DNA of 64,000 bases from an uncultured Oscillospiraceae bacterium (GTDB taxonomy: Bacteria; Bacillota; Clostridia; Oscillospirales; Ruminococcaceae), in contig CAZYUJ010000008.1 of NCBI GenBank assembly GCA_964650705.1, positions 6,762 to 70,761 of the forward strand, in the 5' to 3' direction. The notes beneath the pieces are model-generated. The model searched no databases. It had not been told where the DNA came from and saw only the letters and a program-made list of their open reading frames with translations. Positions 2,682-62,920 of the stretch are shown one piece after another; the stretch's first letter is position 1; each line of letters opens with the position of its first letter. A program made the position numbers and the translations under genes.

Positions 2682-2760
2682 GGCGATGTCGCAAAATGGA
2701 GCCGAGCCGACGCAAGCGGCGAGCGAGGAGCATTGTGCGGCGGAGCGTGGCAGTGAAGTG
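2682..2760 (+). repeat. GC-rich G-skewed intergenic element, copy R1
   Basis: Lies in the divergent trpS/murJ-like intergenic region. Contains TGGAGCCGAGCCGACGCAAGCGGCGAGCGAGGAGCATTGTGCGGCGG, near-identical to copy R5. Confidence 0.7.
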
Positions 2761-2813
2761 GAATAGATTTAAGTGCAGATAAATAGAATGGTACAAGACC
2801 CCTTTCGGAAAGG

Positions 2814-4463
2814 ATGACACCAGTGAAAAAACAGGGACTTTTGTACGGTTCGTTTATATTGATGCTTTCGGTGATCGTATCGAGAGTTGCAGGGCTGATC
2901 TTCAAAATTCCGCTTACAAATATATTGGGCGGAACGGGAATGGGATATTTCCAAAGTGCGTACACCGTGTTTACGCCAATATATTCGATCTGTGCTGTCA
3001 GCCTACCGCCGGCAATATCGACGCTTATAGCCGAAAACTCTGCGTTCGGAAGATATAAAAACATCAGAAATATCAAAAAAACGGCGCTTATAGCTTTCAG
3101 TGCGATATCCGTTATTTTGATGCTGATACCGCTTGTTTTTTCTGATTTCATTGCGACAAAGATCATCGGCAATGCGCTTTGTGCGCCTGCGATTGCGGCG
3201 ATATCGCCTTGTATACTTTTCGGAACGGTTACGGCAGTATATAGAGGATATTTTGAGGGTCTTAAAAACATGACTCCGACAGCGGTATCACAGATGATCG
3301 AAGCTGTTGTGAGGACACTTTGCGGTCTTGGATTTGCATATTACGCAAGTGTTCAGCTCGGGGGAATAAATGATTTCACTACGCCTGTTATAGCTGCGGC
3401 GGCTATATTGGGAGTTACCGTGGCAGACCTGGCGGGGCTTATTTACATAATTCTGAGATTCAAGATCTTCGGTGACGGAATATCGAAGCACGATCTTTCG
3501 CTTGACAACAAAGCAGAGCGCATGAGAACGACTTTCAAGCAGCTTGTCATCTTGATGATACCGATGACGGTCGCAAGCGTTGTAGCGAGCTTAATGAACG
3601 CTGTAGACCTCTCTACGATAATGCTGTGCATCAAGTCAAGCCTTCGAAATCAGCCTGAGCTGTATGCGAAGAAATATGCACAGATAATTGATAGCGGAAT
3701 CAGCTTCGATGAGCTTCCGAACTTTTTATACGGCTCGTTCACGGGGCTCGCGATGACGGTATTCTCGCTGGCGCCCTCCCTTTGTTCTGTATTTGGGAAA
3801 AGTGCGTTGCCGAATATTTCCGAGGCATATGCCAAAAAAGACATGGAACGTGTTAGCAAAGAGATCACCCGAGTTATTGCGATCGTATCATTTATCTCGA
3901 TCCCTGCAGGATTCGGGCTCAGCGCAATGTCTGAAGAGATTTTATGCGTACTGTTTTCAAACAGACAGCTTGAGATTTCCGTTTGCATCGTGCCGCTTTC
4001 TATTATAAGCTTAAGTACGCCTTTTTTGTCGATAAGCGGTGCTGTATACTCGATGCTTCAAGCCGTCGGAAAACAAGATATACCGGTCAAGATAACACTT
4101 TTAGCAGCTATCACAAAGCTTATTTTAAACACGCTTCTTGTTCCGATAACATCACTCGGATTATCAGGCGCAGCCATATCGACCGCCGTCAGCTATATCG
4201 TCATGTGTATCATATCGACCATAGTTCTATTCAAGCATACCGAAACGAATTATAGAAGGATCATCACTCCCCTGTTGTCGCTTATCGGAGGAGTTGCGGC
4301 GTCAATCGGAGCAAAAGCTTGTGCAAATTTATTAAACGGCTATCGCCAAAGTGCTTTAAACACGGCAATTTCTATTGCTTTTGCTGTTATAATCTACATC
4401 ATTATGGTTATGTTGTTGGATAAATCCACTAAAAATAAGCTTATTGAAGAAATTTTTAAATAA
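2814..4463 (+). CDS. MOP-superfamily flippase (MurJ/SpoVB/YabM-like polysaccharide or lipid II flippase)
   Basis: 549 aa with many TM helices and typical MurJ/SpoVB-like composition. Synteny with hup and the S4 (yabO-like) gene supports the call. An alternative GTG start at 2823 has better SD spacing. Confidence 0.8.
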   Translation: MTPVKKQGLLYGSFILMLSVIVSRVAGLIFKIPLTNILGGTGMGYFQSAYTVFTPIYSICAVSLPPAISTLIAENSAFGRYKNIRNIKKTALIAFSAISVILMLIPLVFSDFIATKIIGNALCAPAIAAISPCILFGTVTAVYRGYFEGLKNMTPTAVSQMIEAVVRTLCGLGFAYYASVQLGGINDFTTPVIAAAAILGVTVADLAGLIYIILRFKIFGDGISKHDLSLDNKAERMRTTFKQLVILMIPMTVASVVASLMNAVDLSTIMLCIKSSLRNQPELYAKKYAQIIDSGISFDELPNFLYGSFTGLAMTVFSLAPSLCSVFGKSALPNISEAYAKKDMERVSKEITRVIAIVSFISIPAGFGLSAMSEEILCVLFSNRQLEISVCIVPLSIISLSTPFLSISGAVYSMLQAVGKQDIPVKITLLAAITKLILNTLLVPITSLGLSGAAISTAVSYIVMCIISTIVLFKHTETNYRRIITPLLSLIGGVAASIGAKACANLLNGYRQSALNTAISIAFAVIIYIIMVMLLDKSTKNKLIEEIFK

Positions 4464-4467
4464 ACAC

Positions 4468-4496
4468 TTGCATTTTGCAAAGAAAAAGTATAAAAT
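4468..4496 (+). promoter_or_regulatory. Candidate promoter of hup (TTGCAT-N17-TAAAAT)
   Basis: -35 at 4468-4473 and -10 at 4491-4496 with a 17-nt spacer. Confidence 0.4.
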
Positions 4497-4585
4497 ATAT
4501 CTTGTCTTAGCCTGCTTAGATGATTGAGGCTCATTTTGCAGGCTATCAATTGGATTTCGCAAAATAATATAGGAGGAAAACACAG

Positions 4586-4861
4586 ATGACTAAGGTTGAA
4601 TTAGTAAACAGCATTGCTGCTAAGATGGACTGCTCTAAGAAGGACGCTGAAAAGGCACTCGGCGCAGTAATCGATTCTATTTCCGATGCACTTGTAAACG
4701 GTGAAAAGGTATCCCTTATCGGCTTCGGTACTTTCGAAGTTAGAGAGCGCAAGGCAAAGGAAGGCATTAACCCCAAGAGCAAGCAGAAGATCACTATCCC
4801 TGCTAAGAAGGTTCCTGCTTTCAAGGCCGGCAAGGCTCTTAAGGACAGCGTAGCTAAGTAA
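4586..4861 (+). CDS. hup: DNA-binding protein HU
   Basis: 91 aa with clear full-length HU/IHF-family similarity (GFGTFEVRERKAKEGINPKS...IPAKKVPAFKAGKALKD). SD AGGAGGA lies upstream. Confidence 0.95.
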   Translation: MTKVELVNSIAAKMDCSKKDAEKALGAVIDSISDALVNGEKVSLIGFGTFEVRERKAKEGINPKSKQKITIPAKKVPAFKAGKALKDSVAK

Positions 4862-4867
4862 TTGCTT

Positions 4868-4900
4868 AAAACCGGTTGACAGTGTCGGCCGGTTTTTGTT
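4868..4900 (+). terminator. Rho-independent terminator after hup
   Basis: 9-bp stem CCGGTTGAC/GTCGGCCGG (two G-U pairs) followed by TTTTT. Confidence 0.8.
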
Positions 4901-4934
4901 TACTCCCCTATTTCAAATAACGAAAGGATCAAAT

Positions 4935-5177
4935 ATGAGACTTGATAAATATTTAAAGGTTACACGGCTTATAAAACGCCGCACTGTTGCAAACGAAGCC
5001 TGTGACACAGGCAGAATTTTTGTCAACGACAAACAAGCAAGAGCTTCTTATGAAGTTAAGGTCGGTGACGTGATCGAGATCAGAATGGGTGCAAGCCCGC
5101 TTAAAGCTAAGGTGCTTTCGATCTCGGAATATGCGACAAAAGACTCCGCACACGAGCACTATGAAATAATCAACTAA
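4935..5177 (+). CDS. S4-domain RNA-binding protein (YabO/Hsp15-like)
   Basis: 80 aa from the ATG at 4935, with AAAGGA 6 nt upstream. Carries the S4 motif RLDKYLKVTRLIKRRTVA. The TTG at 4896 given by the ORF track lies in the terminator T-tract and is unlikely to be the start. Confidence 0.85.
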   Translation: MRLDKYLKVTRLIKRRTVANEACDTGRIFVNDKQARASYEVKVGDVIEIRMGASPLKAKVLSISEYATKDSAHEHYEIIN

Positions 5178-11376: not shown

Positions 11377-11465
11377 GCTGAGGGAGTGCAAGAGCGAGGC
11401 GTGGAAGCGCGCCCGCGAACGGAGTGAGCGGAGTGCGGTTTAGTGCCGAGCGCGGCGCCGGTGGG
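11377..11465 (+). repeat. GC-rich G-skewed intergenic element, copy R2 (inside the pheST leader)
   Basis: Lies between the T-box terminator and the pheS RBS. Homologous over about 70 nt to the first half of R9 (AGCGAGGCGTGGAAGCGCG...GTGCCGAGCG). Confidence 0.7.
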
Positions 11466-11467: not shown

Positions 11468-11710
11468 AATAAAAAAACGCCATGCCCCAATCGGGACAAG
11501 ACGCTATCTTGCTATACCACCCATTGTCAGAAGCCAACACTTCTCCCCGTTCATAACGCTTCGGATGCGTTTTTGCCTACAACAAAAAGCTTCAGCAAAA
11601 CCACTCGTGAGTGAACTTCAGATATCCTTAGAATAATGAGCTCACAGCTTTTGCTCATCTCTCTGAAAGCTTCGGATAACTTACTCTCTCAGTCATCGTG
11701 TTTAAATATC
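11468..11710 (-). ncRNA. T-box riboswitch leader, Phe specifier (UUC), controlling pheST
   Basis: Minus strand shows stem I AGAGAG, a specifier context GAAGUUCAC (UUC = plus-strand 11613-11615) and the T-box sequence AAUGGGUGGUAUAGCAAG. A terminator GCGUCUUGUCCCGAUUGGGGCAUGGCGUUUUUUU follows. Confidence 0.85.
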
Positions 11711-14550: not shown

Positions 14551-14626
14551 GACTGAGCGGCGATGTCGGACGCGATGCGCGCCCGAAGGGCGCAGGTCGC
14601 GGGCGGCGGAGCCGCGGGGTGTGGCA
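14551..14626 (+). repeat. GC-rich G-skewed intergenic element, copy R3
   Basis: Abuts the queA stop codon (14627-14629). Contains the hairpin CGCGA-TGC-GCGCCC-GAA-GGGCGC-AGG-TCGCG and the 16-mer GGCGGCGGAGCCGCGG shared with R8. Confidence 0.7.
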
Positions 14627-18757: not shown

Positions 18758-19933
18758 TTATCTCTTCTTGGAAAGAGCAACAGCAGCCATAGCAACTACC
18801 ATAGGAACGATAGCGAGTGCAAGACCGGTGTCAGCGGGCTCTTCTGTTTCAGCATCATCAGTATCAACAACGGGAGCATCTTCGGTAACTTCAACCTGTG
18901 CAACTACTTCGATTGCAGTGATGGTTGTTCCGGCATCACCGGAGATGATGAAGTTGCACCAAGAATAGCCGTCAGCCAAAGCATCAGCACAGCCAGCCAA
19001 AACATCAGCACAAGCGATAGTAGCAACGCCGTCAGCAGTTGTAACTGCTACTTCGTTGTTAGCCAAATCGCTCTGGAAGCCGAGCTTTGTAACGTTGCCG
19101 TCACAAGTGATCTTGAGGGTTGCACCTTCAGTGCTGAGAGCGTCGATAAGGTTGGTCCAAGTAGCGCCGTCCTTCCAGCTGGTTGCGAACTTATCAGAAT
19201 ACCAGTCGCCAACGAGAGTGCAATCAGCAATAGCCTTGCCGTTGTTGTCGTTGTCAGAGGTGTTGGTAGTGATGGAGAAGATAGTTTCTTCAACGATAGT
19301 AACTACGGGAGTTTCTTCTACTGCGGGAGTATCATCAGCAGGAGCTTCTTCTTCAGCAGGAGCTTCGATGGGAGCATCGGGAACTACTACAGCTACGTTA
19401 ACGATGTCGTAAACGTCGTCGGGAGAAGAGTTAGAGATAACAATAAGGTTAGCTCCGCTGGTGTTGTATCCGCCGGCAGTCCATGCAGCCAAGATGTCAG
19501 CAGCGTTGTACCAAACCTTGATGCCATCATCGAGAACGCAGTCGATGTGAACGTCATAAGGCTGACCGCCTTCAGTGGTAACAGCGATATCATGATTTGC
19601 AGTACCGAGAGCGATCCACTGGCAAGTGCTGCCATCAGCTACGGGATAGTTGCCAGACCACCATGAATCGAGGATGTTGAACTTTTCCCAACCGCCGGCT
19701 GTATAAGCCAATTCGCCTGTTGCTGCGCTGCCTCTGGTGATTACAAAGTAAGCACCGGGAGTTTCCAAAGCAGCAACGAAATCAGCAGTGCTGATCTGTG
19801 TTTCAAACTGTTCCCAGTTACCGTTAGAGAAGAACATTGTATCTTCGGAAACAAGAACTTCTTCAGCGGCGATTGCAACTGTTAAGGACATTACCATAAC
19901 AAGCGCCATAATGATTGATAAAACTTTTTTCAT
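18758..19933 (-). CDS. Secreted cell-surface protein P1 (domain A + domain B, acidic Pro/Glu linkers, C-terminal PADTG-TM-KKR anchor)
   Basis: 391 aa from the ATG at 19933 (GGAGGA 7 nt upstream), with signal peptide MKKVLSIIMALVMVMSLTVAIAA. C-terminus is EEPADTGLALAIVPMVVAMAAVALSKKR. Confidence 0.85.
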   Translation of the reverse strand: MKKVLSIIMALVMVMSLTVAIAAEEVLVSEDTMFFSNGNWEQFETQISTADFVAALETPGAYFVITRGSAATGELAYTAGGWEKFNILDSWWSGNYPVADGSTCQWIALGTANHDIAVTTEGGQPYDVHIDCVLDDGIKVWYNAADILAAWTAGGYNTSGANLIVISNSSPDDVYDIVNVAVVVPDAPIEAPAEEEAPADDTPAVEETPVVTIVEETIFSITTNTSDNDNNGKAIADCTLVGDWYSDKFATSWKDGATWTNLIDALSTEGATLKITCDGNVTKLGFQSDLANNEVAVTTADGVATIACADVLAGCADALADGYSWCNFIISGDAGTTITAIEVVAQVEVTEDAPVVDTDDAETEEPADTGLALAIVPMVVAMAAVALSKKR

Positions 19934-19978
19934 TATAATTTCCTCCAATGAAATTAATTCGGTATATTACCAAAACTA

Positions 19979-20007
19979 ATTATAACTCTTGAATAATAAT
20001 TTGTCAA
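19979..20007 (-). promoter_or_regulatory. Perfect consensus sigma-A promoter of P1 (TTGACA-N17-TATAAT)
   Basis: On the minus strand, TTGACA is at 20002-20007 and TATAAT at 19979-19984 with a spacer of exactly 17 nt. Confidence 0.75.
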
Positions 20008-20078
20008 TGAATAGCTAATAATATGTCAGTTTAACAATATATAAAGAGGAAAAATTGTGCATATTCAATAAAGAAAAA

Positions 20079-20100
20079 GTCCCCCCAAAAAAGGGAGGAC
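20079..20100 (-). terminator. Terminator after P2
   Basis: Minus strand reads GTCCTCCC-TTTTTT-GGGGGGAC followed by TTTTTCTTT. Confidence 0.75.
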
Positions 20101-20121
20101 TTTTATTAGTTGTAAATCAAA

Positions 20122-20709
20122 TTACTTTCTCTTGGAAGCAACTACAACTGCAGCAGCTACTACCATAGGAACGATAGCGAGTGCCAAACCGGTGTCAGCA
20201 GGAGCTTCGTCTTCAGTAGCGGGAGCTTCATCAGTGGTGTCTTCTGCAGGAGCTTCGTCTTCAACAGGAGCTTCTTCAACAGCAGCATCAGCGCCAACGA
20301 GAGTGATGTATTCCCAAGTGATTGTGGGAACAGGCAAACCGTAGCTTGCGCCCTTGATTACGATGTTGTTAGCAACGCCCTTAGAAGAATCTTCTGCCAA
20401 GGAAGCGAGCAATACAACTTCGGTTTCGAAAACGCCATCAACAACTTCAACGGTTGTGATGTCGGATTCTCTGCTGGGGTATACGCCGTTACCAAGGTAA
20501 ACTCTGAAGTTAGCATCAGCAGTACCCTTGATCTTGATGGTTACGGTTTCGCCTTCAGCAACATCAGCGGGAAGGTCGATAGTTGCAACGTCGAGACCGC
20601 TAGTCACATGGTCAACGTAGTTAGCAGTCAAATCTGCATCAGCGAAAGCAACGCAGGTAAGAGACAATGCCAAAACGAGTGCCATTGCGATAGAAAGAAT
20701 CTTTTTCAT
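20122..20709 (-). CDS. Secreted cell-surface protein P2 (single beta-rich module, acidic linker, PADTG-TM-KRK anchor)
   Basis: 195 aa from the ATG at 20709 (GGAGGA upstream), with signal peptide MKKILSIAMALVLALSLTCVAFA. C-terminus is EAPADTGLALAIVPMVVAAAVVVASKRK. Confidence 0.85.
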   Translation of the reverse strand: MKKILSIAMALVLALSLTCVAFADADLTANYVDHVTSGLDVATIDLPADVAEGETVTIKIKGTADANFRVYLGNGVYPSRESDITTVEVVDGVFETEVVLLASLAEDSSKGVANNIVIKGASYGLPVPTITWEYITLVGADAAVEEAPVEDEAPAEDTTDEAPATEDEAPADTGLALAIVPMVVAAAVVVASKRK

Positions 20710-20759
20710 ATTCATTTCCTCCAAAAAATAATATTATTTTGTGGTTTACAACCGTTATT

Positions 20760-20788
20760 ATTATACATCTTGTATCGCGATCTGTCAA
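20760..20788 (-). promoter_or_regulatory. Perfect consensus promoter of P2 (TTGACA-N17-TATAAT)
   Basis: On the minus strand, TTGACA is at 20783-20788 and TATAAT at 20760-20765 with a 17-nt spacer. Confidence 0.75.
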
Positions 20789-20887
20789 TATCAATTTCCA
20801 AAAGTTCGATTATTATAATACAAAACGCAATATACCCTCGGCGAATCTATTCGATTTCGTGCAATAAAACGGTGTGATAAACAAAAA

Positions 20888-20908
20888 ACCTCCCAAAAAG
20901 GGAGGTTT
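20888..20908 (-). terminator. Terminator after P3
   Basis: AACCTCCC-AAAAA-GGGAGGTT with flanking A/T runs. Confidence 0.75.
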
Positions 20909-20921
20909 TAGGCTGAATCGA

Positions 20922-21692
20922 TTATCTCTTCTTAGAAAGAGCGACAGCAGCTGCAGCAACTACCATAGGAACGATAGCGAGTGCAAGACCTGTGTCAGCA
21001 GGAGTATCCTCTACTGTGGTGGTGTCCTCTACTTCGGGAGTATCTTCTACTTCGGGAGTTTCTTCTACAGCGGGTTCATCTTCAACGGGAGCTTCGTCAG
21101 CAGCAGGGCCTTCGCCGTTGTATTCAAGGTATGTGATGGTGAAGGTTACAGACTTGATAGAGTGAATGTAAGCTTCGAGGGTAGCGCCGTCAGAGCCGCC
21201 TGCTACGCCGGAGAAGTCGAAAGCACCGGGAACGTGAGTATTGCCTGCGATGCCGCCCCAAGAAGGCTCATAAGCTTCCAAGGATGCTTCGTAAACGCCT
21301 GCAACAGCAACTGTGTAATCGTCATAACCTTCAGCGGTGATAACGATATCAGAGATCTCATACTTGATGGTGGTCTTATCGCCGATCACAGCCTGTGTCT
21401 GACCGATGGTACCGTCGAGGATCTGAATACCGTACTGGTAAGAACCGCCGTCAGCAGTGGTTACGTTCTTCCAAGCATCGCCGGTATAGACAACAGTAGC
21501 AGTTTCGCCAAGGCCGATCTGAACTTCAGATCCGCCAGCGTCCTTCAAAGGTGTCCAAGCAGAGTAGCTGGGTGTATCCTGTACCCAAACCTGAGGCTGG
21601 ATGTGGATGTAAGATGTGTCAACTGCGAAAGCAGAAACGCACATTGCGCTCATGGCAACAACGATTGCCAAAAGAACAGCTAATTTTTTCAT
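20922..21692 (-). CDS. Secreted cell-surface protein P3 (distinct beta-rich module, acidic linker, PADTG-TM-KKR anchor)
   Basis: 256 aa from the ATG at 21692 (AGGAGGA upstream), with signal peptide MKKLAVLLAIVVAMSAMCVSAFA. C-terminus is DTPADTGLALAIVPMVVAAAAVALSKKR. Confidence 0.85.
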   Translation of the reverse strand: MKKLAVLLAIVVAMSAMCVSAFAVDTSYIHIQPQVWVQDTPSYSAWTPLKDAGGSEVQIGLGETATVVYTGDAWKNVTTADGGSYQYGIQILDGTIGQTQAVIGDKTTIKYEISDIVITAEGYDDYTVAVAGVYEASLEAYEPSWGGIAGNTHVPGAFDFSGVAGGSDGATLEAYIHSIKSVTFTITYLEYNGEGPAADEAPVEDEPAVEETPEVEDTPEVEDTTTVEDTPADTGLALAIVPMVVAAAAVALSKKR

Positions 21693-21737
21693 ATAAATTT
21701 TCCTCCTAATGTAGTGTAGGTAACAAAACCTGTTTAA

Positions 21738-21766
21738 ATTATATACCAATAGCAGCAAATTGTCAA
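21738..21766 (-). promoter_or_regulatory. Perfect consensus promoter of P3 (TTGACA-N17-TATAAT)
   Basis: On the minus strand, TTGACA is at 21761-21766 and TATAAT at 21738-21743 with a 17-nt spacer. Confidence 0.75.
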
Positions 21767-21829
21767 CAACGTCCTCAGTTAATACTTGTAGAATATTTTC
21801 ATAAAAAGTGTACAGTTTTAACAAAAAAC

Positions 21830-21858
21830 AAGCTCCCCTACTGTTTGTAGGAGAGCTT
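21830..21858 (-). terminator. Terminator after P4
   Basis: AAGCTCCCCTAC-TGTTTG-TAGGAGAGCTT hairpin. Confidence 0.7.
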
Positions 21859-21877
21859 ATTCAGGCAGAATAAATTA

Positions 21878-22618
21878 TTATCTCTTCTTGGAAAGAGCAA
21901 CTGCAGCCATAGCAACTACCATAGGAACGACAGCGAGTGCCAAACCGGTGTCAGCAGGAGCTTCGTCAGCAGGAGTATCCTCTACTGCGGGGGTGTCCTC
22001 TACTTCGGGAGTTTCTTCTACAGCAGGTTCATCTTCAACGGGAGCTTCTTCTTCAGCAGGAGCGCCGATGGGAGCATCGGGAACTACGATAGAGATGTTA
22101 ACGATGTCGTATGCGGTGGAAGAAGTGTTGGAGATGAGAAGGAGTTCAGAACCGCCGTTTGTGAAGCTTTCCCACTGTGCCAAGAATTCAGCAGCATCGT
22201 ACCAAACCTTTGTGCCGTCGTCGAGAACGCAGTCAAGCATTACGTCGAATTCAGGGAAGCCTTCAATAGTGTGAGCGCCGGTACCGAGACGCATGGTGTT
22301 GATGGTGTTGCCGTCAGCATCTGTACCGAGGTTGCCGGACCACCAGCTATCTGTCATGCAGAACTTTTCATACTTGCCGTCGCCTTCAGCGATCTCAGTG
22401 ACGTCAGTAGGAGCACTTCTGGTGATTACAACGTATGCGCCGGGAGTTGCCAAGTAAGCAGTGAAGTCAGCAACAGAAGTTTCAAGAGTATACTGAGACC
22501 AGTTGGATGCGCTGAAGAACAATGTATCTTCGCTCCAAATAACTTCCTCTGCAGCAACAGCAACTGTTAAGGACAATACCATAACGAGTGCCAATGCAAT
22601 AGATAAGATTTTCTTCAT
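21878..22618 (-). CDS. Secreted cell-surface protein P4 (paralog of P1 domain A, acidic linker, PADTG-TM-KKR anchor)
   Basis: 246 aa with signal peptide MKKILSIALALVMVLSLTVAVAA. Its domain aligns with the P1 N-terminal domain (SEDT.FFS..NW, TPGAY.VITR, DSWWSGN, LDCVLDDG.KVWY). C-terminus is EAPADTGLALAVVPMVVAMAAVALSKKR. Confidence 0.88.
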   Translation of the reverse strand: MKKILSIALALVMVLSLTVAVAAEEVIWSEDTLFFSASNWSQYTLETSVADFTAYLATPGAYVVITRSAPTDVTEIAEGDGKYEKFCMTDSWWSGNLGTDADGNTINTMRLGTGAHTIEGFPEFDVMLDCVLDDGTKVWYDAAEFLAQWESFTNGGSELLLISNTSSTAYDIVNISIVVPDAPIGAPAEEEAPVEDEPAVEETPEVEDTPAVEDTPADEAPADTGLALAVVPMVVAMAAVALSKKR

Positions 22619-22814: not shown

Positions 22815-24005
22815 CTATTTAAGCGCCAACGAGATGACATCCCAATAAGCTGACTTAAGCTCGTTATCACGGGCGATGAGGAAGGGATAGTTATCTTTTT
22901 CGCTGCTGTTGAGCCAAGAGTTGCCGTCGTTGATCCCCCAGAACACAACGGAATCAATAAGCCCCATCTCAGAGTATTCCATCAGCAAAGCAAAGAGGTC
23001 TTTATATGTCTGATTATACTTCTCGATGAATTCTTTATCGTCAGGATCGCCGTTCCAACCGTTACAGTTCATATCGAGCTCAGTGACTTCGAGGATGAAA
23101 TCGGGGTTGATCTCACGCAAGCGTGAAAGCTTTTCGAGATTGCTTCTCAAAGTATCGATATTCGTATCATAGCTTATATGCATCTGAAGTCCTATGCCGT
23201 CGATCGGAACGCCGTCCTCAAGCATCTTCTTGACAGCAAGATACATGCTGATGGTCTTTTGCTCGCTCCACTCCATGTTATAATCATTTATAATGAGTCT
23301 TGCATCGGGGTCAGCGGCACGTGCGGAAATGAATGCCTGCTCGATATAGTCGTATTTATCGCCGTCTCCGTCATAGTCCCCTATTATTTCGAGCCACTTG
23401 GAGTATCTGAGTCCTCCTCCGTCGTTAATAACTTCGTTAACAACGTCCCATGTATCTATCTTCCCGGCGTACCGTGAAACGATAGTGGTAACGTGTTCAT
23501 CGATTCTTTGCATAAGCTGTTCGGCAGTTGCGGGTTCGCCGCTAACGCCCGAAGCATAGAAGAACCAATCGGGAACCTGTGAGTGCCAGATGAGTGTGTG
23601 GCCGCGAAGAGTGACGTCATATTTCTCGCCGAATTCAACATAGGCATCGACATTAGTGAAGTTGTATGTATTTTCGGAAGGATGCATAGCATCGGGTTTC
23701 GAAGCGTTCTCAAGGACAAAAGTGTTGAACTGCTTCATTATGGATTTGAAATCATCACTTGAGGTGTTGCTGATAGTCCACGGGTTGATGCAAGCACCGA
23801 CCTTGAAATAATCGGCAAAAGCCTCATATAAAGATGGAGCATTGTCATCATAGGAATACTTTGCGAGCTTCATGGACTTCAGCTCATCCTGTGTGTACTG
23901 ATAATCCTCAGTAAGGATCGGCTGTGCGCCGCAGGCAGTAAGTGAAAGCATCAAGATCACAACTGCGAGCACAAGCGCAATAGCTCTTGGCAAGTGTCTT
24001 TTCAT
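22815..24005 (-). CDS. GH10 endo-1,4-beta-xylanase lipoprotein
   Basis: 396 aa from the ATG at 24005, with lipobox LSLTACG. GH10 motifs are present: RGHTLIWHSQ, WDVVNEV (acid/base Glu) and VTELDM (nucleophile Glu). Confidence 0.9.
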   Translation of the reverse strand: MKRHLPRAIALVLAVVILMLSLTACGAQPILTEDYQYTQDELKSMKLAKYSYDDNAPSLYEAFADYFKVGACINPWTISNTSSDDFKSIMKQFNTFVLENASKPDAMHPSENTYNFTNVDAYVEFGEKYDVTLRGHTLIWHSQVPDWFFYASGVSGEPATAEQLMQRIDEHVTTIVSRYAGKIDTWDVVNEVINDGGGLRYSKWLEIIGDYDGDGDKYDYIEQAFISARAADPDARLIINDYNMEWSEQKTISMYLAVKKMLEDGVPIDGIGLQMHISYDTNIDTLRSNLEKLSRLREINPDFILEVTELDMNCNGWNGDPDDKEFIEKYNQTYKDLFALLMEYSEMGLIDSVVFWGINDGNSWLNSSEKDNYPFLIARDNELKSAYWDVISLALK

Positions 24006-24040
24006 AGTTGTTCTCCGTTCCAAATAAATGTGTATTGTTA

Positions 24041-39583: not shown

Positions 39584-39665
39584 GTCGGGGCGGCGGTGTG
39601 AGGAGGAGCTGTGCGGCGGCTTGAAAAGGCGGTCGCACAGAAGCTCCGAGCGCGCCGCCGTTGCA
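39584..39665 (+). repeat. GC-rich G-skewed intergenic element, copy R4
   Basis: Abuts the trmL stop codon (39669-39671). Can fold into an extended hairpin: CGGCGGTGTG/CGCGCCGCCG outer stem and GGAGCTGTGCG/CGCAC-AGA-AGCTCC inner stem. Confidence 0.7.
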
Positions 39666-41075: not shown

Positions 41076-41158
41076 AGGTGTTGGGCGAGCAGGTGTGCGG
41101 TGGAGCCGAGCCGCCGCGTTAGCGGCGAGCGAGGAGCACTGTGCGGCGCGAGCGGTTG
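41076..41158 (+). repeat. GC-rich G-skewed intergenic element, copy R5
   Basis: Lies upstream of pdxK. Contains TGGAGCCGAGCCGCCGCGTTAGCGGCGAGCGAGGAGCACTGTGCGGCGCG, near-identical to the R1 core. Confidence 0.7.
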
Positions 41159-41311
41159 ATGAAAGCAACAAACTTTGGTAAACATTTTACCACTTTTCAA
41201 GCAATGAAGCAATTATTTCTTTGATTATTTTTCTGCAATTCGTGCAAAATATCAGTGCAAATACATCTTTGGGCAAAAAGTTGTCGAATTTGCCTATGAA
41301 AGGAAGGAAAA

Positions 41312-41485
41312 ATGATGAATGTATCCTCGCTCGCAAAAGGGTTAGCAGTCGGAATGGTGGTCGGAGCGGCGACATATGCTTTGACAAACGCTACACGATC
41401 TCAAAAGCGCAGCTTCAAATCAAACACCGTCAAGGCGATGAAATCGGTGTCTAAAATGATCGACGGTTTGGGTGCAATGTTTTGA
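41312..41485 (+). CDS. Small hypothetical membrane protein (57 aa), not in the ORF track
   Basis: ATG at 41312 follows AAGGAAGGAAAA. Peptide is MMNVSSLAKGLAVGMVVGAATYALTNATRSQKRSFKSNTVKAMKSVSKMIDGLGAMF (one TM helix plus a basic tail). A hairpin follows. Confidence 0.45.
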   Translation: MMNVSSLAKGLAVGMVVGAATYALTNATRSQKRSFKSNTVKAMKSVSKMIDGLGAMF

Positions 41486-42449: not shown

Positions 42450-43028
42450 TCAGATTGCAGAGAAAAGCCTTATCAAAAGGCAATCCAGTGCACAAATTAT
42501 TGCAAGGATCAAAGAAAGATAGATGAACTTTGCGGTATAGTCAGCGGCTTCGTTTTTAATGCCCAGACGGTTTTCGGTCGTGGTGGAGAGCGCAAAATAG
42601 CACCCGGACAGATGCAACGATTGCTTTGCCTGAGTCAGTATCACAGCTGTTGAAGCGATAGCAAAGGGCAAAAAAGCGGCAATGCTCTTAAGCGGAGAAT
42701 CGCTCAAATATGCCCCTCTGACACAGATGCCCAAGCCCATTCCTCTAAGCGCACAGACGGCTATGGATACAGGCTGAAAAACAGCACCGAAGCCGCACAG
42801 AAACAAAGCGATGATAAAAACCTCAGTCCCGAAAAACGAGGTCAGGCAGGCGCTCAGCCAAGCATCGGAAGCGCAAAGCGAAAGCTTTGTTGACATATCC
42901 CCTATCAGGATCAGCGATTCGTTCGGAATTCCGATGCTTACGGCAACCCCCAAAGCGATCCCCAAAGCAAGCGACGGAAAGACAAGACAGCCCGCGCTGA
43001 ACGGCCTTTTTGTTTTCAGCATTTCCAT
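42450..43028 (-). CDS. Membrane protein, SpoIIM/DUF95-like (tentative)
   Basis: 192 aa from the ATG at 43028 (AAGGAGGAG upstream) with about 5 TM helices. The longer ORF-track N-terminus crosses element R6. Confidence 0.5.
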   Translation of the reverse strand: MEMLKTKRPFSAGCLVFPSLALGIALGVAVSIGIPNESLILIGDMSTKLSLCASDAWLSACLTSFFGTEVFIIALFLCGFGAVFQPVSIAVCALRGMGLGICVRGAYLSDSPLKSIAAFLPFAIASTAVILTQAKQSLHLSGCYFALSTTTENRLGIKNEAADYTAKFIYLSLILAIICALDCLLIRLFSAI

Positions 43029-43091
43029 TTCATCACTCCTCCTTAACGGAGTATATGATGAAGGGACAGGCAATAGAACACATGAGGGAAA

Positions 43092-43185
43092 GTGCCGCAA
43101 AGCAGTGCCGTCCGAGAAGGAGCGAAGCGGCGCGACGAAGTCGCAGTCGGCTCGAGCTTCGAGGGTGGCACGGTCGGTTGCACAC
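43092..43185 (+). repeat. GC-rich G-skewed intergenic element, copy R6
   Basis: Lies between the folT-like stop and the SpoIIM-like start. Has hairpins GCGAC-GAA-GTCGC and CTCGA-GCT-TCGAG, and shares GGTCGGTTGC with R9 and GAAGCGGCG with other copies. Confidence 0.6.
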
Positions 43186-43290
43186 AAAAGTTCAAGATAT
43201 ATTATACATAAATAATTTAATAATAGCAAGTACCAAATGTGGAAGTTGTGTGAAAAAAGACCGACTGAATTTAACAATCGGTCTTAAACG

Positions 43291-44159: not shown

Positions 44160-44270
44160 ACGTTAAGCGGGATGCGAAAACCGAACCGCAGTACACAAAC
44201 GGTCTTTTCGTTTGGACAGCAACTCCCCGTCTGCCCAACACTCTTTCACGCTCGGTTTTCTACTCTTAGT
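44160..44270 (-). ncRNA. THF (tetrahydrofolate) riboswitch aptamer
   Basis: Minus strand reads UAAGAGUAG-AAAACCGA-GCGUGAAAG...UGGG...ACGAA...GCGGU-UCGGUUUU-CGCAUCCCGCUUA. This matches the conserved THF-I blocks, with compensatory P1/P2 changes relative to the E. siraeum reference as I remember it. Confidence 0.85.
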
Positions 44271-47394: not shown

Positions 47395-48921
47395 ATGAAG
47401 AAGCTTTCAAAACTTTTACAAAGCAGAATGTTCATTACAATTTTGCTTTTGTTTGTTCAGCTCGTTATATTGATAGTATTTTTAGGCGTTTTGTTTGACA
47501 GATTCGCTGTTTACTATATCATTTCCTCTGTTGTTGCGCTTCTTTCGATCGTGGACATTGCTAATTCGGATATGAACCCATCGTTTAAGATAGCGTGGCT
47601 GGTTTTAGTGCTTATCGTTCCCTTCTGCGGAACTCCTCTTTATTTAATATTCTCAAAATCAAAGCAGGATTACAGGATATCAAAGCGGTTACGGAAGTAT
47701 AAGACTCTTGAAAGGCTGATGATAAGCAACACTGATGAAAATTTAGATGAGGTCGAAGATCAGGCTCCCGAAATTGCAAGGCAGATGAAATATATATCAA
47801 AAACTGCACTTGCACCCGTGTATAAAAACACGCAAACAAAATATTTCGCACAGGGCGAGGATTATTTTGAGGCTCTTTTATATGAGCTCAGGCGTGCACA
47901 GAGATTTATCTTTTTGGAATATTTCATCATCGAAAACGGAAAGATGTTCGATTCGATACTTGAGATATTGAAGGCAAAAGTGGCTCAAGGCATCGAAGTG
48001 AGACTCATGTTTGACGACTTGGGAACGATATCGAAGCTGACGAAGAACTATGACAAAGAGCTTGAGGCAATGGGACTTAGGGTTTCGGTATTTAACAGAC
48101 TCAGACCCTCGCTTGATACGTCTTTAAACTATCGCGATCATCGAAAGATCGTCGTGATCGACGGCAACGTCGCTTTCACGGGCGGAATCAACCTTGCGGA
48201 CGAATATATCAACGAGGTCGAAAAGTTCGGGCACTGGAAGGACACGGGCATTATGCTCAAGGGAGATGCTGTGACAAAGATGACCGAAACATTCTTACAG
48301 CTCTGGCATTTTTCTAAGGGTGAGTCCAAGATCGACCTCAAGGACTATGGCTGTAAGACGAGCAGCGAGAGCGACGGATATATCCAGCCGTTTGCGGACG
48401 GCCCTATGAATAACGATGAGATATGCGAAATGTGCTACATGGGGCTTATAAACAGTGCAAGAAAGAACATCTATATTACCACACCGTATCTTATCCTGGA
48501 CAATGAAATGCAAACGGCTTTATGCCATGCCGCAAAAAGCGGTGTTGACGTCAAGATAATAACTCCGCATATTCCCGATAAAAAGCTGGTTTTGGCTGTG
48601 ACGAGATCATATTACAGAGCGCTTTTGAAGGCAGGAGTTAAAATATATGAATACACTCCCGGATTTATTCATGCGAAATCGTTATCTGCTGATAGCGAGG
48701 TATGCGTTGTGGGCACAGCCAACTTTGACTTCAGAAGCTTTTATATGCACTTTGAGAACTGCGTTTTAGCCTATAAATCGAGCTGTGTTAATGATGTAGA
48801 GAAAGACTTCGAGCAAACTCTTGAGCTTTGCGAGGAGATCACATTGGAATCGATAAACAAAAAGGGCACGTTATATCGGCTTTTGCAGGCGGTATTAAAA
48901 ATATTTGCGCCGCTGATGTAG
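47395..48921 (+). CDS. cls: Cardiolipin synthase
   Basis: 508 aa from the ATG at 47395 (AAGGAGGA upstream), with two N-terminal TM helices and two PLD HKD motifs (HRKIVVIDG, IHAKSLSADS). Confidence 0.93.
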   Translation: MKKLSKLLQSRMFITILLLFVQLVILIVFLGVLFDRFAVYYIISSVVALLSIVDIANSDMNPSFKIAWLVLVLIVPFCGTPLYLIFSKSKQDYRISKRLRKYKTLERLMISNTDENLDEVEDQAPEIARQMKYISKTALAPVYKNTQTKYFAQGEDYFEALLYELRRAQRFIFLEYFIIENGKMFDSILEILKAKVAQGIEVRLMFDDLGTISKLTKNYDKELEAMGLRVSVFNRLRPSLDTSLNYRDHRKIVVIDGNVAFTGGINLADEYINEVEKFGHWKDTGIMLKGDAVTKMTETFLQLWHFSKGESKIDLKDYGCKTSSESDGYIQPFADGPMNNDEICEMCYMGLINSARKNIYITTPYLILDNEMQTALCHAAKSGVDVKIITPHIPDKKLVLAVTRSYYRALLKAGVKIYEYTPGFIHAKSLSADSEVCVVGTANFDFRSFYMHFENCVLAYKSSCVNDVEKDFEQTLELCEEITLESINKKGTLYRLLQAVLKIFAPLM

Positions 48922-48969
48922 CGCAGGGCGCGTGGGCGGAGCCGAGTGCGCGCGTGCGCGGGCGGAGCA
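48921..48969 (+). repeat. GC-rich G-skewed intergenic element, copy R7
   Basis: Starts at the last base of the cls stop codon. Contains GGGCGGAGCCGAGTGCGCG (compare R8 GGGCGGAAGCCGAGTGCTCGG) and two GCGCGTG heptamers. Confidence 0.65.
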
Positions 48970-48981
48970 TGACAAATAATG

Positions 48982-49018
48982 AGCACTTACAGTTCGAGGC
49001 TGTAAGTGCTTTTGTTTT
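48982..49018. terminator. Bidirectional terminator between cls and the convergent rluA-family gene
   Basis: AGCACTTACAG-TTCGAGG-CTGTAAGTGCT followed by TTTGTTTT. Confidence 0.8.
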
Positions 49019-50623: not shown

Positions 50624-50684
50624 GATGATTCTCCGTTTCGTTTTATTCACTTGATTTTAGCACATATCGCCTTGATAGTCAATC

Positions 50685-50763
50685 AGCGGCGATTTCGCCG
50701 AGCGCGGGCGGAAGCCGAGTGCTCGGCGGCGGAGCCGCGGTGAGAGCCGCAGGAAGTCGGGGA
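50685..50763 (+). repeat. GC-rich G-skewed intergenic element, copy R8
   Basis: Lies between the ATPase terminator and the prmA start. Has the hairpin GCCGAG-TG-CTCGGC and the 16-mer GGCGGCGGAGCCGCGG (50725-50740), identical to R3 14602-14617. Confidence 0.7.
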
Positions 50764-50771: not shown

Positions 50772-50798
50772 CAAGGGACAGCGAAAGCTGTCCCTTGG
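50772..50798 (-). terminator. Terminator after the P-type ATPase gene
   Basis: CAAGGGACAGC-TTTC-GCTGTCCCTTG followed by ATTTTATTT on the minus strand. Confidence 0.8.
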
Positions 50799-61631: not shown

Positions 61632-61664
61632 GTTGCACCCTCCTTAATTTTCTTGATTCAATGG

Positions 61665-61697
61665 AAAACCCAAGCTTTTTGTGTCAAGCTTGGGTTT
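61665..61697 (-). terminator. Terminator after rpmA
   Basis: AAAACCCAAGCTT-N8-AAGCTTGGGTTTT. Confidence 0.8.
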
Positions 61698-61709
61698 TAA
61701 GCCTAATTG

Positions 61710-61991
61710 TTATTCTGCGGGATATACGCTTACTTTCTTTCTGTCGCGGCCAAGTCTTTCAAATCTTACTACGCCGTCAACCTTTGCGTATAAAGTATCA
61801 TCAGAACCGATACCTACGTTCACACCGGGGTGAATGTGTGTACCTCTCTGGCGGTAAAGAATGTTACCTGCCAAAACTGCCTGTCCGTCTGCTCTCTTAG
61901 CGCCGAGTCTCTTGGATTCAGAGTCACGACCGTTCTTGGTAGAACTTACACCCTTCTTATGAGCGAAGAACTGCATACTGATTCTTAACAT
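61710..61991 (-). CDS. rpmA: 50S ribosomal protein L27 with a Firmicute-type cleavable N-terminal extension
   Basis: 93 aa. MLRISMQFF precedes the mature [15 protein letters not shown] sequence. Confidence 0.97.
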
Positions 61992-61994
61992 TTA

Positions 61995-62309
61995 TTACAC
62001 CTCCGAAATAGTTACTTTTATTGTGTTTGGATAATCCTCCGAAAGAAGCTGCAAATGGAACTTTAAGCCTTCGAGCATATCTTCTGCTTCCGAGGATTCC
62101 TCTAAAAGTCCGCACCTGATCTCGTTGTCAAACGCTTTTACGTCAGCCTTGACCTTTAAAATCTCGGTAACGGTGTTCGCAGTCATCATTACGCTTGACG
62201 AGACACTCGCACAAACGATGTCCTTGCCAAACAATGCATATCCTGCGTGGCCTTTGATGGCAAAGCCCTTAACCCTGCCGTTGGTTGTTAAAAACTGAGC
62301 GTCAATCAT
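61995..62309 (-). CDS. prp: Ribosomal-processing cysteine protease Prp (YsxB)
   Basis: 104 aa lying between rplU and rpmA, with the motifs GHAGY and DIVCASVS. Confidence 0.9.
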   Translation of the reverse strand: MIDAQFLTTNGRVKGFAIKGHAGYALFGKDIVCASVSSSVMMTANTVTEILKVKADVKAFDNEIRCGLLEESSEAEDMLEGLKFHLQLLSEDYPNTIKVTISEV

Positions 62310-62623
62310 TATGCCTTGATAGCTTCAATTCTTACCTGTGTGTAGGGCTGTCTGTGACCCTGCTTCTTGTGAGAAGAACCCTTCTTGGGCTTGTAGGTAA
62401 ATACAGTGATTTTCTTAGCCTTACCGTTCTTAAGAACTGTAGCATCAACGGTAGCACCTGCAACATAGGGAGCACCTACGGTGGTGGATTCGCCGTTAGA
62501 AACAACGATGACCTTATCGAAGGTTACGTTTTCTTCAGCTTCAACGGGGAGCTTTTCGATGAAGAGGATATCGCCCTCTTTAACCTGATACTGCTTTCCG
62601 CCTGTTTCAATTACTGCGTACAT
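62309..62623 (-). CDS. rplU: 50S ribosomal protein L21
   Basis: 104 aa from the ATG at 62623, beginning [18 protein letters not shown]. Confidence 0.96.
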
Positions 62624-62744
62624 TATAAGTTGGCACCTGCCTTTACTATAAAACTCGCTACGTTTCGGCACGGTTTTTCACCGATTTTCGGGAGCCGAGC
62701 ATATGCGGCTTGAGTATTGTACCATATTAAATATATGGGTGCAA
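62624..62744 (-). promoter_or_regulatory. rplU promoter (TTGCAC-N17-TACAAT) and a structured ~90-nt leader (possible L21-leader-type autoregulatory RNA)
   Basis: On the minus strand, -35 is at 62739-62744 and -10 at 62716-62721. The leader holds the hairpins AGCCG-N8-CGGCT and CGGT-GAAAAA-ACCG. The L21-leader assignment is not verified. Confidence 0.4.
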
Positions 62745-62780
62745 GGATATTTCGAAAAATTCACAAAAAGTTTACAAAGT

Positions 62781-62920
62781 CAGCGAGGCGTGAAGCGCCG
62801 CGCACGGAGTGCTGTGGCGTTTCGTGCCGAGCGGTGGTTGGTCGGTTGCTTCTGAGCCGACGTCCGGCGCTGCGGCTCTTGCGGCGGAGCTGCAGGAGTC
62901 AGCGGCGGGTGGAGGCGGTC
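62781..62920 (+). repeat. GC-rich G-skewed intergenic element, copy R9 (double-length)
   Basis: Abuts the clpC-like stop codon (62919-62921). The first half is homologous to R2. The second half carries GCGGCGGAGCTGCAGGAGTCAGCGGCGGG, related to R1/R4/R5 words. Confidence 0.7.

Follow-up and report, generated by a model that had tools for sequence, protein, structure and literature searches.

Nine GC-rich intergenic patches, R1–R9, in a 64,000-nucleotide stretch of DNA from an uncultured gut bacterium of the Oscillospiraceae (hereafter the window) constitute a genuine repeat family, restricted to one lineage, whose members form hairpins. Rather than one uniform repeat, they comprise at least four overlapping subfamilies of imperfect palindromes, arranged as a mosaic (Table 1). 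We read them as REP/BIME-like repeats that may act or spread as single-stranded hairpins, with a probability of about one half.

A family of intergenic repeats with a single polarity

R1–R9 are the sole long stretches with a GC content of at least 68% in the window, which has 45.7% GC overall and only 25–45% GC in its element-free intergenic DNA. A blind composition scan (40-nt windows, GC ≥ 0.70) recovered the same nine intervals as originally described, and these were the only patches of at least 59 nt; ten further matches were 40–51 nt in length and, where checked, lay within genes. All nine elements are intergenic: of 33 intergenic regions with a length of 50 nt or more, 9 contain one. In each case the + strand is the G-rich one (G 39–55%, C 22–29%; GC skew +0.20 to +0.39). 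The earlier hand estimate for R3 and R5, about 50% G and under 30% C, agrees with counts of 50% G and 28% C for R3 and 49% G and 23% C for R5. Five independent Logan assemblies, 98.4–100% identical to the window, carry R1–R3 and one further Logan assembly carries R9, showing that the patches are not assembly artefacts.

Local alignment scores were compared with those of composition-matched shuffles, the check proposed with the original prediction. Related pairs in the same orientation gave z values of 4.4–21: R1–R5 (z = 21, a relationship also found by nhmmer), R2–R9 (z = 11; nhmmer E = 5e-14 for R9a), R6–R9 (z = 7.7), R3–R8 (z = 7.3), R7–R8 (z = 5.0) and R3–R7 (z = 4.4). Scores above shuffles were seen in the same orientation only, the reverse-complement alignments of related pairs being no better than chance (maximum z = 2.7, R1–R4). 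No credible CDS covers any element, and the ORFs that cross them are N-terminal extensions, as with ORF 40176–41171, where PdxK homologues have 286–288 aa. The claim of a dispersed, non-coding family with one polarity is borne out; the nine are indeed a family, but as a network of at least four subfamilies, A–D, within which copies are about 70–88% identical. Shared words follow the same polarity: GCGGCGGAGC occurs four times, always inside elements, GGCGGAGC occurs seven times on the + strand (six inside elements) and never on the − strand, and AGCGG has a 9:0 strand skew inside elements. An AT-rich linker, GCAAAACYGAAATATTT, is found at two non-orthologous sites and joins some of the modules in relatives.

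As the original prediction held, promoters, terminators and the two riboswitches, a T-box (11489–11705, − strand) and a THF riboswitch (44163–44269, − strand), fail to explain the elements. A search of all elements against Rfam returned no family even at E ≤ 5, the window encodes no transposase, adjacent to the elements or elsewhere, and no element matches were found in plasmids or phages.

Table 1. Position, type and surroundings of the elements (the G-rich strand is given).
Element	Coordinates	Strand	Subfamily and form	Surroundings
R1	2682..2760	+	A; core common to R5	Divergent region between trpS (−) and a spoVB-like gene (+); upstream of the predicted trpS promoter (2626–2654, − strand), 28 nt from its −35
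R2	11377..11465	+	B; hairpin	Starts right behind the U-tract of the T-box terminator; 46 nt separate its end from the pheS start (11331)
R3	14551..14626	+	D; nested hairpins	Right end adjoins the queA stop codon (14627); left end 35 nt from the next − strand gene start (14516)
R4	39584..39665	+	Long hairpin; weak kinship to A	3 nt past the trmL stop; upstream of the predicted pgk promoter (39486–39514, − strand)
R5	41076..41158	+	A	Within the pdxK 5′ UTR (pdxK start 41042); a conserved extended −10 on the − strand, GTGGTAAAAT, lies upstream
R6	43092..43185	+	C, diverged; GCCGTC/GGTGGC core	5′ UTR of a 193-aa gene (42450–43031), just downstream of the promoter at 43201–43229 (− strand)
R7	48921..48969	+	D; shortest element	Starts at the stop codon of cls (+); precedes a bidirectional terminator hairpin (48981–49011) that also follows rluA (−)
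R8	50685..50763	+	D	Fills the gap from the −35 of the prmA promoter (50654–50682, − strand) to the intrinsic terminator of the P-type ATPase gene (50772–50797, − strand)
R9a	62781..62850	+	B; hairpin, left half of composite R9	Upstream of rplU (−)
R9b	62851..62920	+	C; right half of composite R9	Right end overlaps the stop codon of a Clp ATPase gene (62919)

Imperfect hairpins and strand-specific pairing

Each of R1–R9 is an imperfect palindrome made up of one or more imperfect hairpins, which the original description, finding no obvious terminal inverted repeat, had overlooked. All 25 elements tested had the more stable fold on the + strand (R3, −48.3 kcal/mol, z = −4.4, against −33.9 on the − strand; R4, −55.5, z = −7.5, against −34.1), part of this gap being due to G-richness alone, as shuffles also favour the + strand by 4–20 kcal/mol. 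The minimum free energy structures of these 25 elements contained 656 Watson–Crick and 124 G·U pairs and no A·C 1×1 mismatches on the + strand, against 618 Watson–Crick, 9 G·U and 14 A·C on the − strand; mismatched stem positions are nearly all G·T when read on the + strand.

The hairpins are supported by compensatory changes. Nine alignment sets gave 485 Watson–Crick, 84 G·U and 1 A·C cells, with 23 compensatory pairs, 12 changes between Watson–Crick and G·U and a single change between Watson–Crick and A·C. In R4, the inner helix reads CTGTGCG/CGCACAG in the window and CCGCTTG/CAAGCGG in the related genome L043. In subfamily B, represented by 5 copies from 4 sites in 4 genomes, 96.1% of cells were paired; three G·U pairs are invariant and 6 pairs are compensatory, and none of 500 shuffles attained the covariation score. 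Furthermore, a stacked C-G/G·T/T·G motif, common to several sequence-distinct subfamilies, was present on the + strand of 18 of 34 elements, on the − strand of none, and in 6 of 1020 shuffles (0.6%). On the complementary strand this motif is a tandem A·C internal loop.

Turnover and constraint in related genomes

In four close Candidatus Faeciplasma-like genomes the same intergenic sites are occupied by such elements, with some copies gained, lost or exchanged for another type. About 25 further elements were identified in four related genomes, which lends indirect support to the family being genome-wide, as originally predicted. The slightly more distant L272 and L273 (86% PdxK identity) have clean empty sites with conserved promoters; in L272, R4, R5 and R6 are all absent, R5 from behind the same pdxK promoter. 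No elements were present in L008–L016, the R4 site of L008 included, and in L043 R6 has been deleted.

Copies of a single subfamily occur at non-orthologous sites, and close species differ through gain, loss and exchange of elements. The type B hairpin lies at R2 and R9, at the R7 site of L043 and L270, where there are additional modules, and at the arsR site of L007. Homologues of R9b are found at a non-orthologous position, the R6 site of L006 and L007, and the R8 site of the same two genomes holds another element type. Between arsR and the ATPase gene, L043 has a 180-nt element and L007 a different, shorter one, and the window has none.

Retained copies evolve far slower than the third codon positions of ordinary neighbouring genes, with identities between window and L043 elements of 0.79–0.86 (R8, 79%; R5, 86%) compared with 0.50–0.61; R1 shows 1–2 substitutions in L001–L003. 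Such purifying selection in situ is at least as compatible with a host function as with a selfish element. The varied locations of the elements, in 5′ UTRs, after stop codons, in gaps between terminator and promoter and in divergent and convergent spacers, suit insertion wherever tolerated better than one regulatory role.

Possible origins and known repeat families

In the reading that we favour, a lineage-specific REP/BIME-like family, built from modules of GC-rich imperfect palindromes, would have spread into dispensable intergenic DNA in the ancestor of a small Candidatus Faeciplasma-like Oscillospiraceae clade. The biologically relevant form would be the single-stranded hairpin, with stems that appear to tolerate only changes preserving G·T pairing on the + strand. 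The C-G/G·T/T·G stack, or its tandem A·C loop, may be a strand-specific irregularity of the kind that HUH/Y1 enzymes (RAYT, IS200/IS605 TnpA) read on single-stranded DNA; the E. coli RAYT binds one strand of the imperfect REP hairpin via a mismatched bulge, and not the complementary strand (PMC3479197). The uniform polarity could arise if insertion or use were strand-specific and tied to replication, the − strand being the main coding strand of the region and presumably the leading strand.

Against this reading, no target-site duplication could be defined at the elements, and recent transposition is not evident because the copies have diverged. If the − strand is the leading one, as the orientation of essential genes would indicate, the G-rich strand with the better pairing serves as leading-strand template. 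Activity in the IS608 model resides in the lagging-strand template, and the C-rich, mismatched strand would therefore have to be the active one.

It is possible, though unlikely, that the host uses the elements as cis-acting RNA signals on sense (− strand) transcripts, the C-rich, G-poor 50–140 nt acting as Rho-utilisation (rut)-like attenuators or terminators or as UTR insulators or stabilisers, and that the G·T asymmetry reflects selection for G-poor, weakly structured mRNA rather than + strand pairing. The C/G ratio of the − strand is 1.4–2.2 across 49–140 nt, every wobble position is read as C·A in the mRNA and so is mismatched there, purifying selection acts on the elements, and stem-loops and rut-like signatures are widespread near transcript 3′ ends (PMC13613805). 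Elements R2, R5 and R6 lie within 5′ UTRs of − strand genes, R2 forming a C-rich part of the pheS leader transcript given its position between T-box terminator and pheS; R3, R4 and R9 directly follow the stop codons of − strand genes without an intrinsic terminator, and R7 and R8 come after terminators. However, rut sites need neither homology nor compensated, conserved hairpins, and the elements have both. The RNA is still 22–29% G, and the sense RNA is not unstructured, since it folds at −17 to −90 kcal/mol (−89.6 for the R5-site element of L007). Moreover, R1 is upstream of the trpS promoter and outside any predicted − strand transcript, sister lineages lack elements at the same promoters and UTRs, and cells would pay a high price for a Rho terminator in the 5′ UTR of housekeeping genes such as pheS and pdxK.

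Polar DNA-level host signals, or binding sites for nucleoid or repair proteins with an orientation fixed by replication (gyrase or HU/IHF sites as in BIMEs, clustered Chi-like or KOPS-like motifs), appear improbable. Such signals would suit the single orientation whatever the local gene context, the purifying selection, the strongly skewed G-rich oligomers, and the two occurrences in R7 of GCGCGTG, the lactococcal Chi sequence. Known Chi and KOPS are, however, short words scattered in genes, not hairpins of 50–180 nt, and point 5′→3′ along the leading strand. The ribosomal-protein, tRNA-synthetase and glycolysis genes are all on the − strand and the elements are G-rich on the + strand, so if the leading strand is the one indicated by gene orientation, their polarity is wrong for Chi or KOPS. 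The G·T-only asymmetry would also not be expected of double-stranded binding sites, and the elements are missing from close relatives. Slightly less probable still is transcription of the G-rich strand into structured antisense or small RNAs, or their 3′ structures, with the conserved tandem G·U as an RNA recognition motif: G·U-specific pairing with compensatory changes is a classical RNA-structure signature, a promoter-like TTGAGA-17-TATGAT (39532–39560, + strand) precedes R4 and R7 lies within the 3′ UTR of cls, but the other elements have no predicted + strand promoter or terminator, antisense transcription would be required across nine unrelated intergenic regions, Rfam gave no match, and gain, loss and mosaicism are unlike an sRNA gene.

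Amongst known systems, rut regions resemble the elements as C-rich, G-poor RNA of about 80 nt from the transcribed strand, after genes or in leaders, but are non-homologous and unstructured, whereas the elements are homologous, hairpin-forming and 66–84% GC. The MITE-type repeats found in mRNAs (ERIC/IRU, Correia/NEMIS, RUP and BOX) are likewise small, non-autonomous and intergenic, fold into long hairpins, lie in UTRs and between cistrons, and differ in presence among close strains. They have defined terminal inverted repeats, target duplications and a host-like base composition, and they occur in both orientations; the elements here showed neither target duplications nor defined termini, and have a single polarity and a composition far from that of the host.

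The REP/BIME class had been excluded too quickly in the original prediction. Two of its defining features do fail: no conserved GTAG or CGTC tag is present in the elements, and elements and cluster modules have one orientation throughout, whereas REPs form inverted pairs or alternate within BIMEs. Also against the REP/BIME reading, the units are 50–180 nt long and not 20–40 nt, and they are much more heterogeneous in sequence. The host belongs to a low-GC Clostridia lineage, whereas REPs, BIMEs and REPINs are proteobacterial, a REP survey making no mention of Firmicutes (PMC3733652); they are mobilised by RAYT, an IS200/IS605-type Y1 HUH transposase, and a search of the window and of about 150 kb from related loci found neither this nor any other transposase gene. 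By anatomy, REP/BIME is nevertheless the closest known kind. Both are extragenic, with GC far above the surroundings, and often lie just downstream of genes; both are imperfect palindromes with conserved irregularities in the stems, have subfamilies distinguished by complementary stem changes, form mosaic clusters with linker motifs, are retained at orthologous sites across related genomes, and take their recognisable hairpin form on one strand only.

GC-rich intergenic elements of a single polarity

The window (45.7% GC overall) was subjected to a blind composition scan with 40-nt windows and a cut-off of GC ≥ 0.70, which returned the nine patches R1-R9 as the only ones of at least 59 nt; the other ten matches measured 40-51 nt and lay inside genes where checked. 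On the + strand R1-R9 contain 39-55% G and 22-29% C, with a positive GC skew in all nine (+0.20 to +0.39). All are extragenic, as are the corresponding elements of related genomes, and of 33 intergenic regions measuring 50 nt or more, nine hold one, the rest of the intergenic DNA being 25-45% GC. R1 to R3 and R9 are also present in independent Logan assemblies 98.4-100% identical to the window, with 0-3 substitutions per element, so that assembly error does not explain the patches. The feature is real and reproducible.

Same-orientation local alignment against composition-matched shuffles gave z = 21 for R1-R5, 11 for R2-R9, 7.7 for R6-R9, 7.3 for R3-R8, 5.0 for R7-R8 and 4.4 for R3-R7, and reverse-complement alignments were at chance for all linked pairs (maximum z = 2.7, R1-R4). 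The pairwise similarity anticipated in the original prediction is thus borne out, in the same orientation only. Furthermore, all four occurrences of the 10-mer GCGGCGGAGC lie within elements, and GGCGGAGC has seven occurrences on the + strand versus none on the - strand. Alignments and nhmmer profiles resolved four overlapping subfamilies (A-D), with R9 a composite of B and C. The proposal of one dispersed family with one polarity holds for its reality and its polarity, but its members are not copies of one unit. Unit length is 49-140 nt in the window, and relatives have units of up to about 180 nt.

Positions and settings of the elements and of neighbouring features (window coordinates, unless a related locus, L-number, is named)
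Feature	Coordinates (strand)	Type	Setting or remarks
R1	2682-2760	A	Divergent spacer, 28 nt upstream of the trpS -35
R2	11377-11465	B	Directly 3' of the U-tract of the pheS T-box terminator
R3	14551-14626	D	Adjoins stop codon of a - strand gene
R4	39584-39665	Weakly related to A	Adjoins stop codon of a - strand gene
R5	41076-41158	A	5' UTR insertion, downstream of a promoter conserved in element-free L272
R6	43092-43185	C	As R5
R7	48921-48969	D	Flanked by the stop of cls (+ strand gene) and a bidirectional terminator
R8	50685-50763	D	Gap from an intrinsic terminator to the near-consensus promoter TTGACT-17-TAAAAT
R9, left half	62781-62850	B	R9 adjoins stop codon of a - strand gene
R9, right half	62851-62920	C
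R5-site element	L006 12096-12219; L007 14385-14518; L270 9853-9976	Multi-hairpin, 124-134 nt	Within the pdxK 5' UTR
Linker AAAATATTTCTTGC...GCAAAACYGAAATATTT	L007 16084-16100; L270 1913-1929 (and L267-269)	AT-rich palindromic motif
T-box leader	11489-11705 (-)	At Rfam gathering score	Upstream of pheS-pheT
Lipoprotein-like genes	18758-22618 (-)	Four tandem paralogues	Common signal-peptide regions; internal 15-18 nt periodic repeats (repeat families D1-D9) encoding acidic or proline-rich linkers; no Pfam match for 18758-19948, the only member scanned
GH10 xylanase genes	22815-26206 (-)	Two neighbours	DNA segments 73-78% identical (repeat families D5, D7); second gene also has an SH3_3 domain
pgk	38200-39420
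Promoter-like site	39532-39560 (+)	TTGAGA-17-TATGAT	Directed into R4 on the G-rich strand; sole + strand promoter prediction adjoining an element
57-aa ORF (MMNVSSLAKGLAVGMVVGAATYALTNATRSQKRSF...)	41312-41485 (+)	Probably a real small membrane protein	Conserved in L008, L010, L015, L267-L272; below the 80-aa ORF threshold
THF riboswitch	44163-44269 (-)	At Rfam gathering score	Upstream of a folate ECF S-component gene; kept in L006, L007, L043
Terminator call	48906-48925 (-)	Intrinsic	Overlaps merely the first bases of R7

Hairpins that pair on one strand

Folding predicted one or more hairpins in every element. The original prediction had seen no obvious terminal inverted repeat; the elements prove palindromic throughout and are more structured than it supposed. 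The + strand folds at -27 to -81 kcal/mol (z -0.8 to -7.5, mean about -3.3) and the - strand at -17 to -48 kcal/mol (mean z about -1.3), the + strand being the more stable in all 25 elements compared from the window and three relatives. Over these 25, the + strand forms 656 Watson-Crick and 124 G·U pairs with no A·C 1x1 mismatch, versus 618, 9 and 14, respectively, on the - strand. Because shuffled sequences likewise favour the G-rich strand, by 4-20 kcal/mol, the folding difference is in part compositional; composition does not account for the total lack of A·C positions on the + strand.

Covariation was examined most closely for subfamily B, using five copies from four non-orthologous sites in four genomes. 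Pairing was retained in 96.1% of cells, versus 85.4% in shuffles, and the covariation score was 0.362, versus 0.154 (0/500 shuffles reaching the observed value in either case), while slid controls paired at most 56%. Six pairs carry compensatory double changes and three G·U pairs are invariant. Similarly, the inner helix of R4 reads CTGTGCG/CGCACAG in the window versus CCGCTTG/CAAGCGG in the related locus L043. Nine alignment sets pooled gave 485 Watson-Crick, 84 G·U and 1 A·C cells, with 23 compensatory pairs, 12 Watson-Crick to G·U exchanges and a single exchange between Watson-Crick and A·C. Helix structure is maintained on one strand.

Moreover, a stacked C-G/G·T/T·G step, formed by CGTS on the 5' arm and SGTG on the 3' arm, was found on the + strand in 18 of 34 elements (orthologues and paralogues, hence non-independent) and in at least six sequence-distinct types. 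The - strand of the 34 never shows it, and among 1020 shuffles it arose in 6. On the complementary strand the same bases make up a tandem A·C internal loop.

Distribution, turnover and constraint among relatives

A scan based on PFK placed the organism as an uncultured Oscillospiraceae bacterium, with genomes under the label Candidatus Faeciplasma sp. as its nearest. Synteny with the stretch of the window between positions 35.7 and 56.6 kb is seen in four related species (L043, L006, L007, equivalent to L267-269, and L270/271), with 88-98% protein identity for PGK, PdxK, PFK and TrmL and 72-90% for the more diverged Ser/Thr kinase. GC-rich patches stand at the same intergenic sites in all four, with the polarity of the window. 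No elements were found in L272/L273 (86% identity for PdxK, 78% for PFK) or in any more distant genome compared, and L272 has clean empty sites with promoters and leaders conserved. The relatives with empty sites are GCA_965341075.1 and GCA_965332325.1; element-bearing species are represented in samples such as those of SRR14307642 and GCA_017472735.1. This pattern dates the family's origin, or its invasion, to the ancestor of a small clade. In a different, non-syntenic neighbourhood, 20 kb around the database protein closest to the window's Clp ATPase (L174/L175; GCA_965618685.1, GCA_965614055.1) contained no GC-rich element. That homologue, at 84% identity, is a complete 551-aa protein, and the window gene may likewise encode a short Clp variant and not full-length ClpB.

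Within the clade the elements turn over. L043 has lost R6 by deletion and carries an additional type B hairpin at the R7 site, and the gap between arsR and an ATPase gene holds a 180-nt element in L043, a different, shorter one in L007 and just 27 nt in the window. At the R4, R5 and R8 sites, the elements of L006, L007 and L270 are of quite different types, and the R6 site of L006 and L007 is occupied by the type of R9's right half. The R5-site element of L006, L007 and L270 has an outer stem GGGCGAAGCCC/GGGCTTCGCC around two or three hairpins, shows compensatory changes between species and folds with extreme stability on either strand (-74 to -102 kcal/mol). At the R7 site of L270 lies a 413-nt mosaic whose GC-rich modules are linked by AT-rich GCAAAACYGAAATATTT, found again at the R4 site of L007; the longer motif AAAATATTTCTTGC...GCAAAACYGAAATATTT splits GC-rich modules in two non-orthologous clusters of relatives and is absent from the window.

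Orthologous elements of the window and L043 show identities of 0.81 (R4), 0.86 (R5) and 0.79 (R8), similar to promoter-bearing spacers; third codon positions are 50-61% identical in ordinary neighbours and 68-79% in pfk and pgk. As the elements exceed the third positions of ordinary neighbours, retained copies are under purifying selection and not decaying relics. As a separate observation, PGK of L007 and L008 is 98% identical to that of the window, with neighbouring proteins at just 73-91%; recombination, transfer of pgk or very strong constraint are possible reasons.

Searches for further copies were made in several directions. A 27-nt query taken from the R1/R5 core, with 26 bases specified and matched exactly, had no match in GTDB representatives, among which the source genome is therefore not included. 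A gapped subfamily C pattern gave 110 matches in metagenome contigs, all in contigs of at least 58% GC and hence taken as chance. Two patterns run against viral contigs gave no matches, or chance ones in coding sequence or high-GC contigs, and by blastn neither R9 (against plasmids) nor R5 (against phages) gave any. nhmmer with the four subfamily profiles, over the window and 63 genome or assembly loci, added no copies to those known. Outward from the window, Obg-bearing contigs extend only 2.7-4 kb, and the YchF protein at the left edge has no database record.

Gene context, mechanism and comparison with known repeats

Of the genes accepted as real for skew analysis, 44 of 51, most of them housekeeping, lie on the - strand. 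As the settings in the table indicate, the elements seem to fill any signal-free intergenic space, a heterogeneity that argues against a single regulatory role. Separate canonical terminators adjoin R2, R7 and R8, and no intrinsic terminator was called within an element on either strand.

The main rival explanation is a role in sense RNA, as a rut-like or UTR element, the G·T bias then arising from selection for G-poor, less structured mRNA. The positions of R2-R6, R8 and R9 are consistent with it, and the - strand does show the C>G bias of a rut-type stretch of about 80 nt (C/G 1.4-2.2, with G still at 22-29%). However, the low structure typical of rut sites is lacking, the sense-strand folds ranging from -17 to -48 kcal/mol in the window and reaching -90 kcal/mol in relatives, and such a role leaves the very stable folds of the relatives, the homology, the compensated helices and R1 unexplained. 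Less likely accounts of the elements are polar DNA signals and sRNAs from the + strand. Coding potential was rejected on a frameshifting indel between R1 and R5, G-quadruplexes on the absence of any canonical motif (four runs of at least three G; mean G4Hunter 0.24-0.67), replacement of terminators on the R4 site being terminator-less in element-free relatives, and known RNAs, group II intron domain V among them, on the Rfam result below; a tRNA-like nature was also rejected.

The most economical reading, by analogy, is a REP/BIME-like repeat family whose relevant form would be the single-stranded hairpin. The RAYT transposase recognises the imperfect REP hairpin on one strand only, by its mismatched bulge, and ignores the complement (PMC3479197). 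A putative enzyme might act similarly here, on whichever of the two strands is active, with insertion coupled to replication. Should essential genes by their orientation mark the - strand as leading, the lagging-strand template would be the C-rich strand with its A·C loops, and an IS608 model would then require recognition of that strand in place of the better-pairing G-rich one. GC skew at third and four-fold sites follows expression level and membrane proteins and is thus unusable for replication direction. Throughout the sequence covered the - strand is both the main coding and the presumed leading strand, so that polarity linked to replication is not separable from polarity linked to transcription. 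We give roughly one chance in five to the full form of the repeat-family reading: a REPIN-like system of Clostridia locked to one chromosome strand, in which the invariant tandem G·T step, shared across otherwise unrelated subfamilies, would mark the hairpin for a putative single-strand-specific enzyme or binding protein, the elements now being host-selected intergenic architecture.

The elements would extend persistent intragenomic repeats of the REP/BIME type to uncultured gut Clostridia and, with every copy in one orientation and pairing on one strand only, offer a natural test of strand choice. Judged from their location, elements in housekeeping leaders (pheS after the T-box, pdxK) may alter expression. 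Their turnover between close species could make them useful as strain markers, and breaks between contigs of metagenome assemblies may be due to them. Surveys for novel structured RNAs detect GC-rich intergenic regions, and such repeats give false leads there. We consider the single polarity and one-strand pairing moderately interesting; function and means of spread are inferred.

Among known families, no Rfam covariance model matched any element of the window or relatives at gathering score or E ≤ 5, in agreement with the original prediction. BOX, RUP and ERIC are host-composition repeats of streptococci and enterobacteria and, judged by description, are unlike R1-R9. In the available portions of the literature naming Faeciplasma, genomic repeats are not a subject. 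As for MITEs, the elements are wholly palindromic, and junctions of filled and empty sites are too diverged to define ends or duplications. The original prediction had noted no adjacent transposase, and no transposase, integrase or reverse transcriptase is encoded in the window, nor is a RAYT (Y1_Tnp) gene present there or in the related loci compared.

Set against the REP/BIME repeats of Proteobacteria, the elements differ in three respects: units exceed the usual 20-40 nt; no conserved tag marks the hairpin foot (GTAG occurs once, at the cls stop codon by R7, and CGTC only in R6 and R9, within the stem); and the alternating or inverted units of BIMEs and REPINs were not found, the R9 modules, the 413-nt cluster of L270 and all ~35 elements sharing one polarity. 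Their density is 9-10 per 64 kb. They share with REP/BIME repeats an extragenic location, imperfect-palindrome stem-loops with a conserved stem irregularity, and mosaicism. By this analogy they may work as REP/BIME repeats do and would extend the known kind as putative members; REP families, too, comprise subfamilies with alternative complementary stems, form mosaic clusters and prefer positions downstream of genes (PMC3733652).
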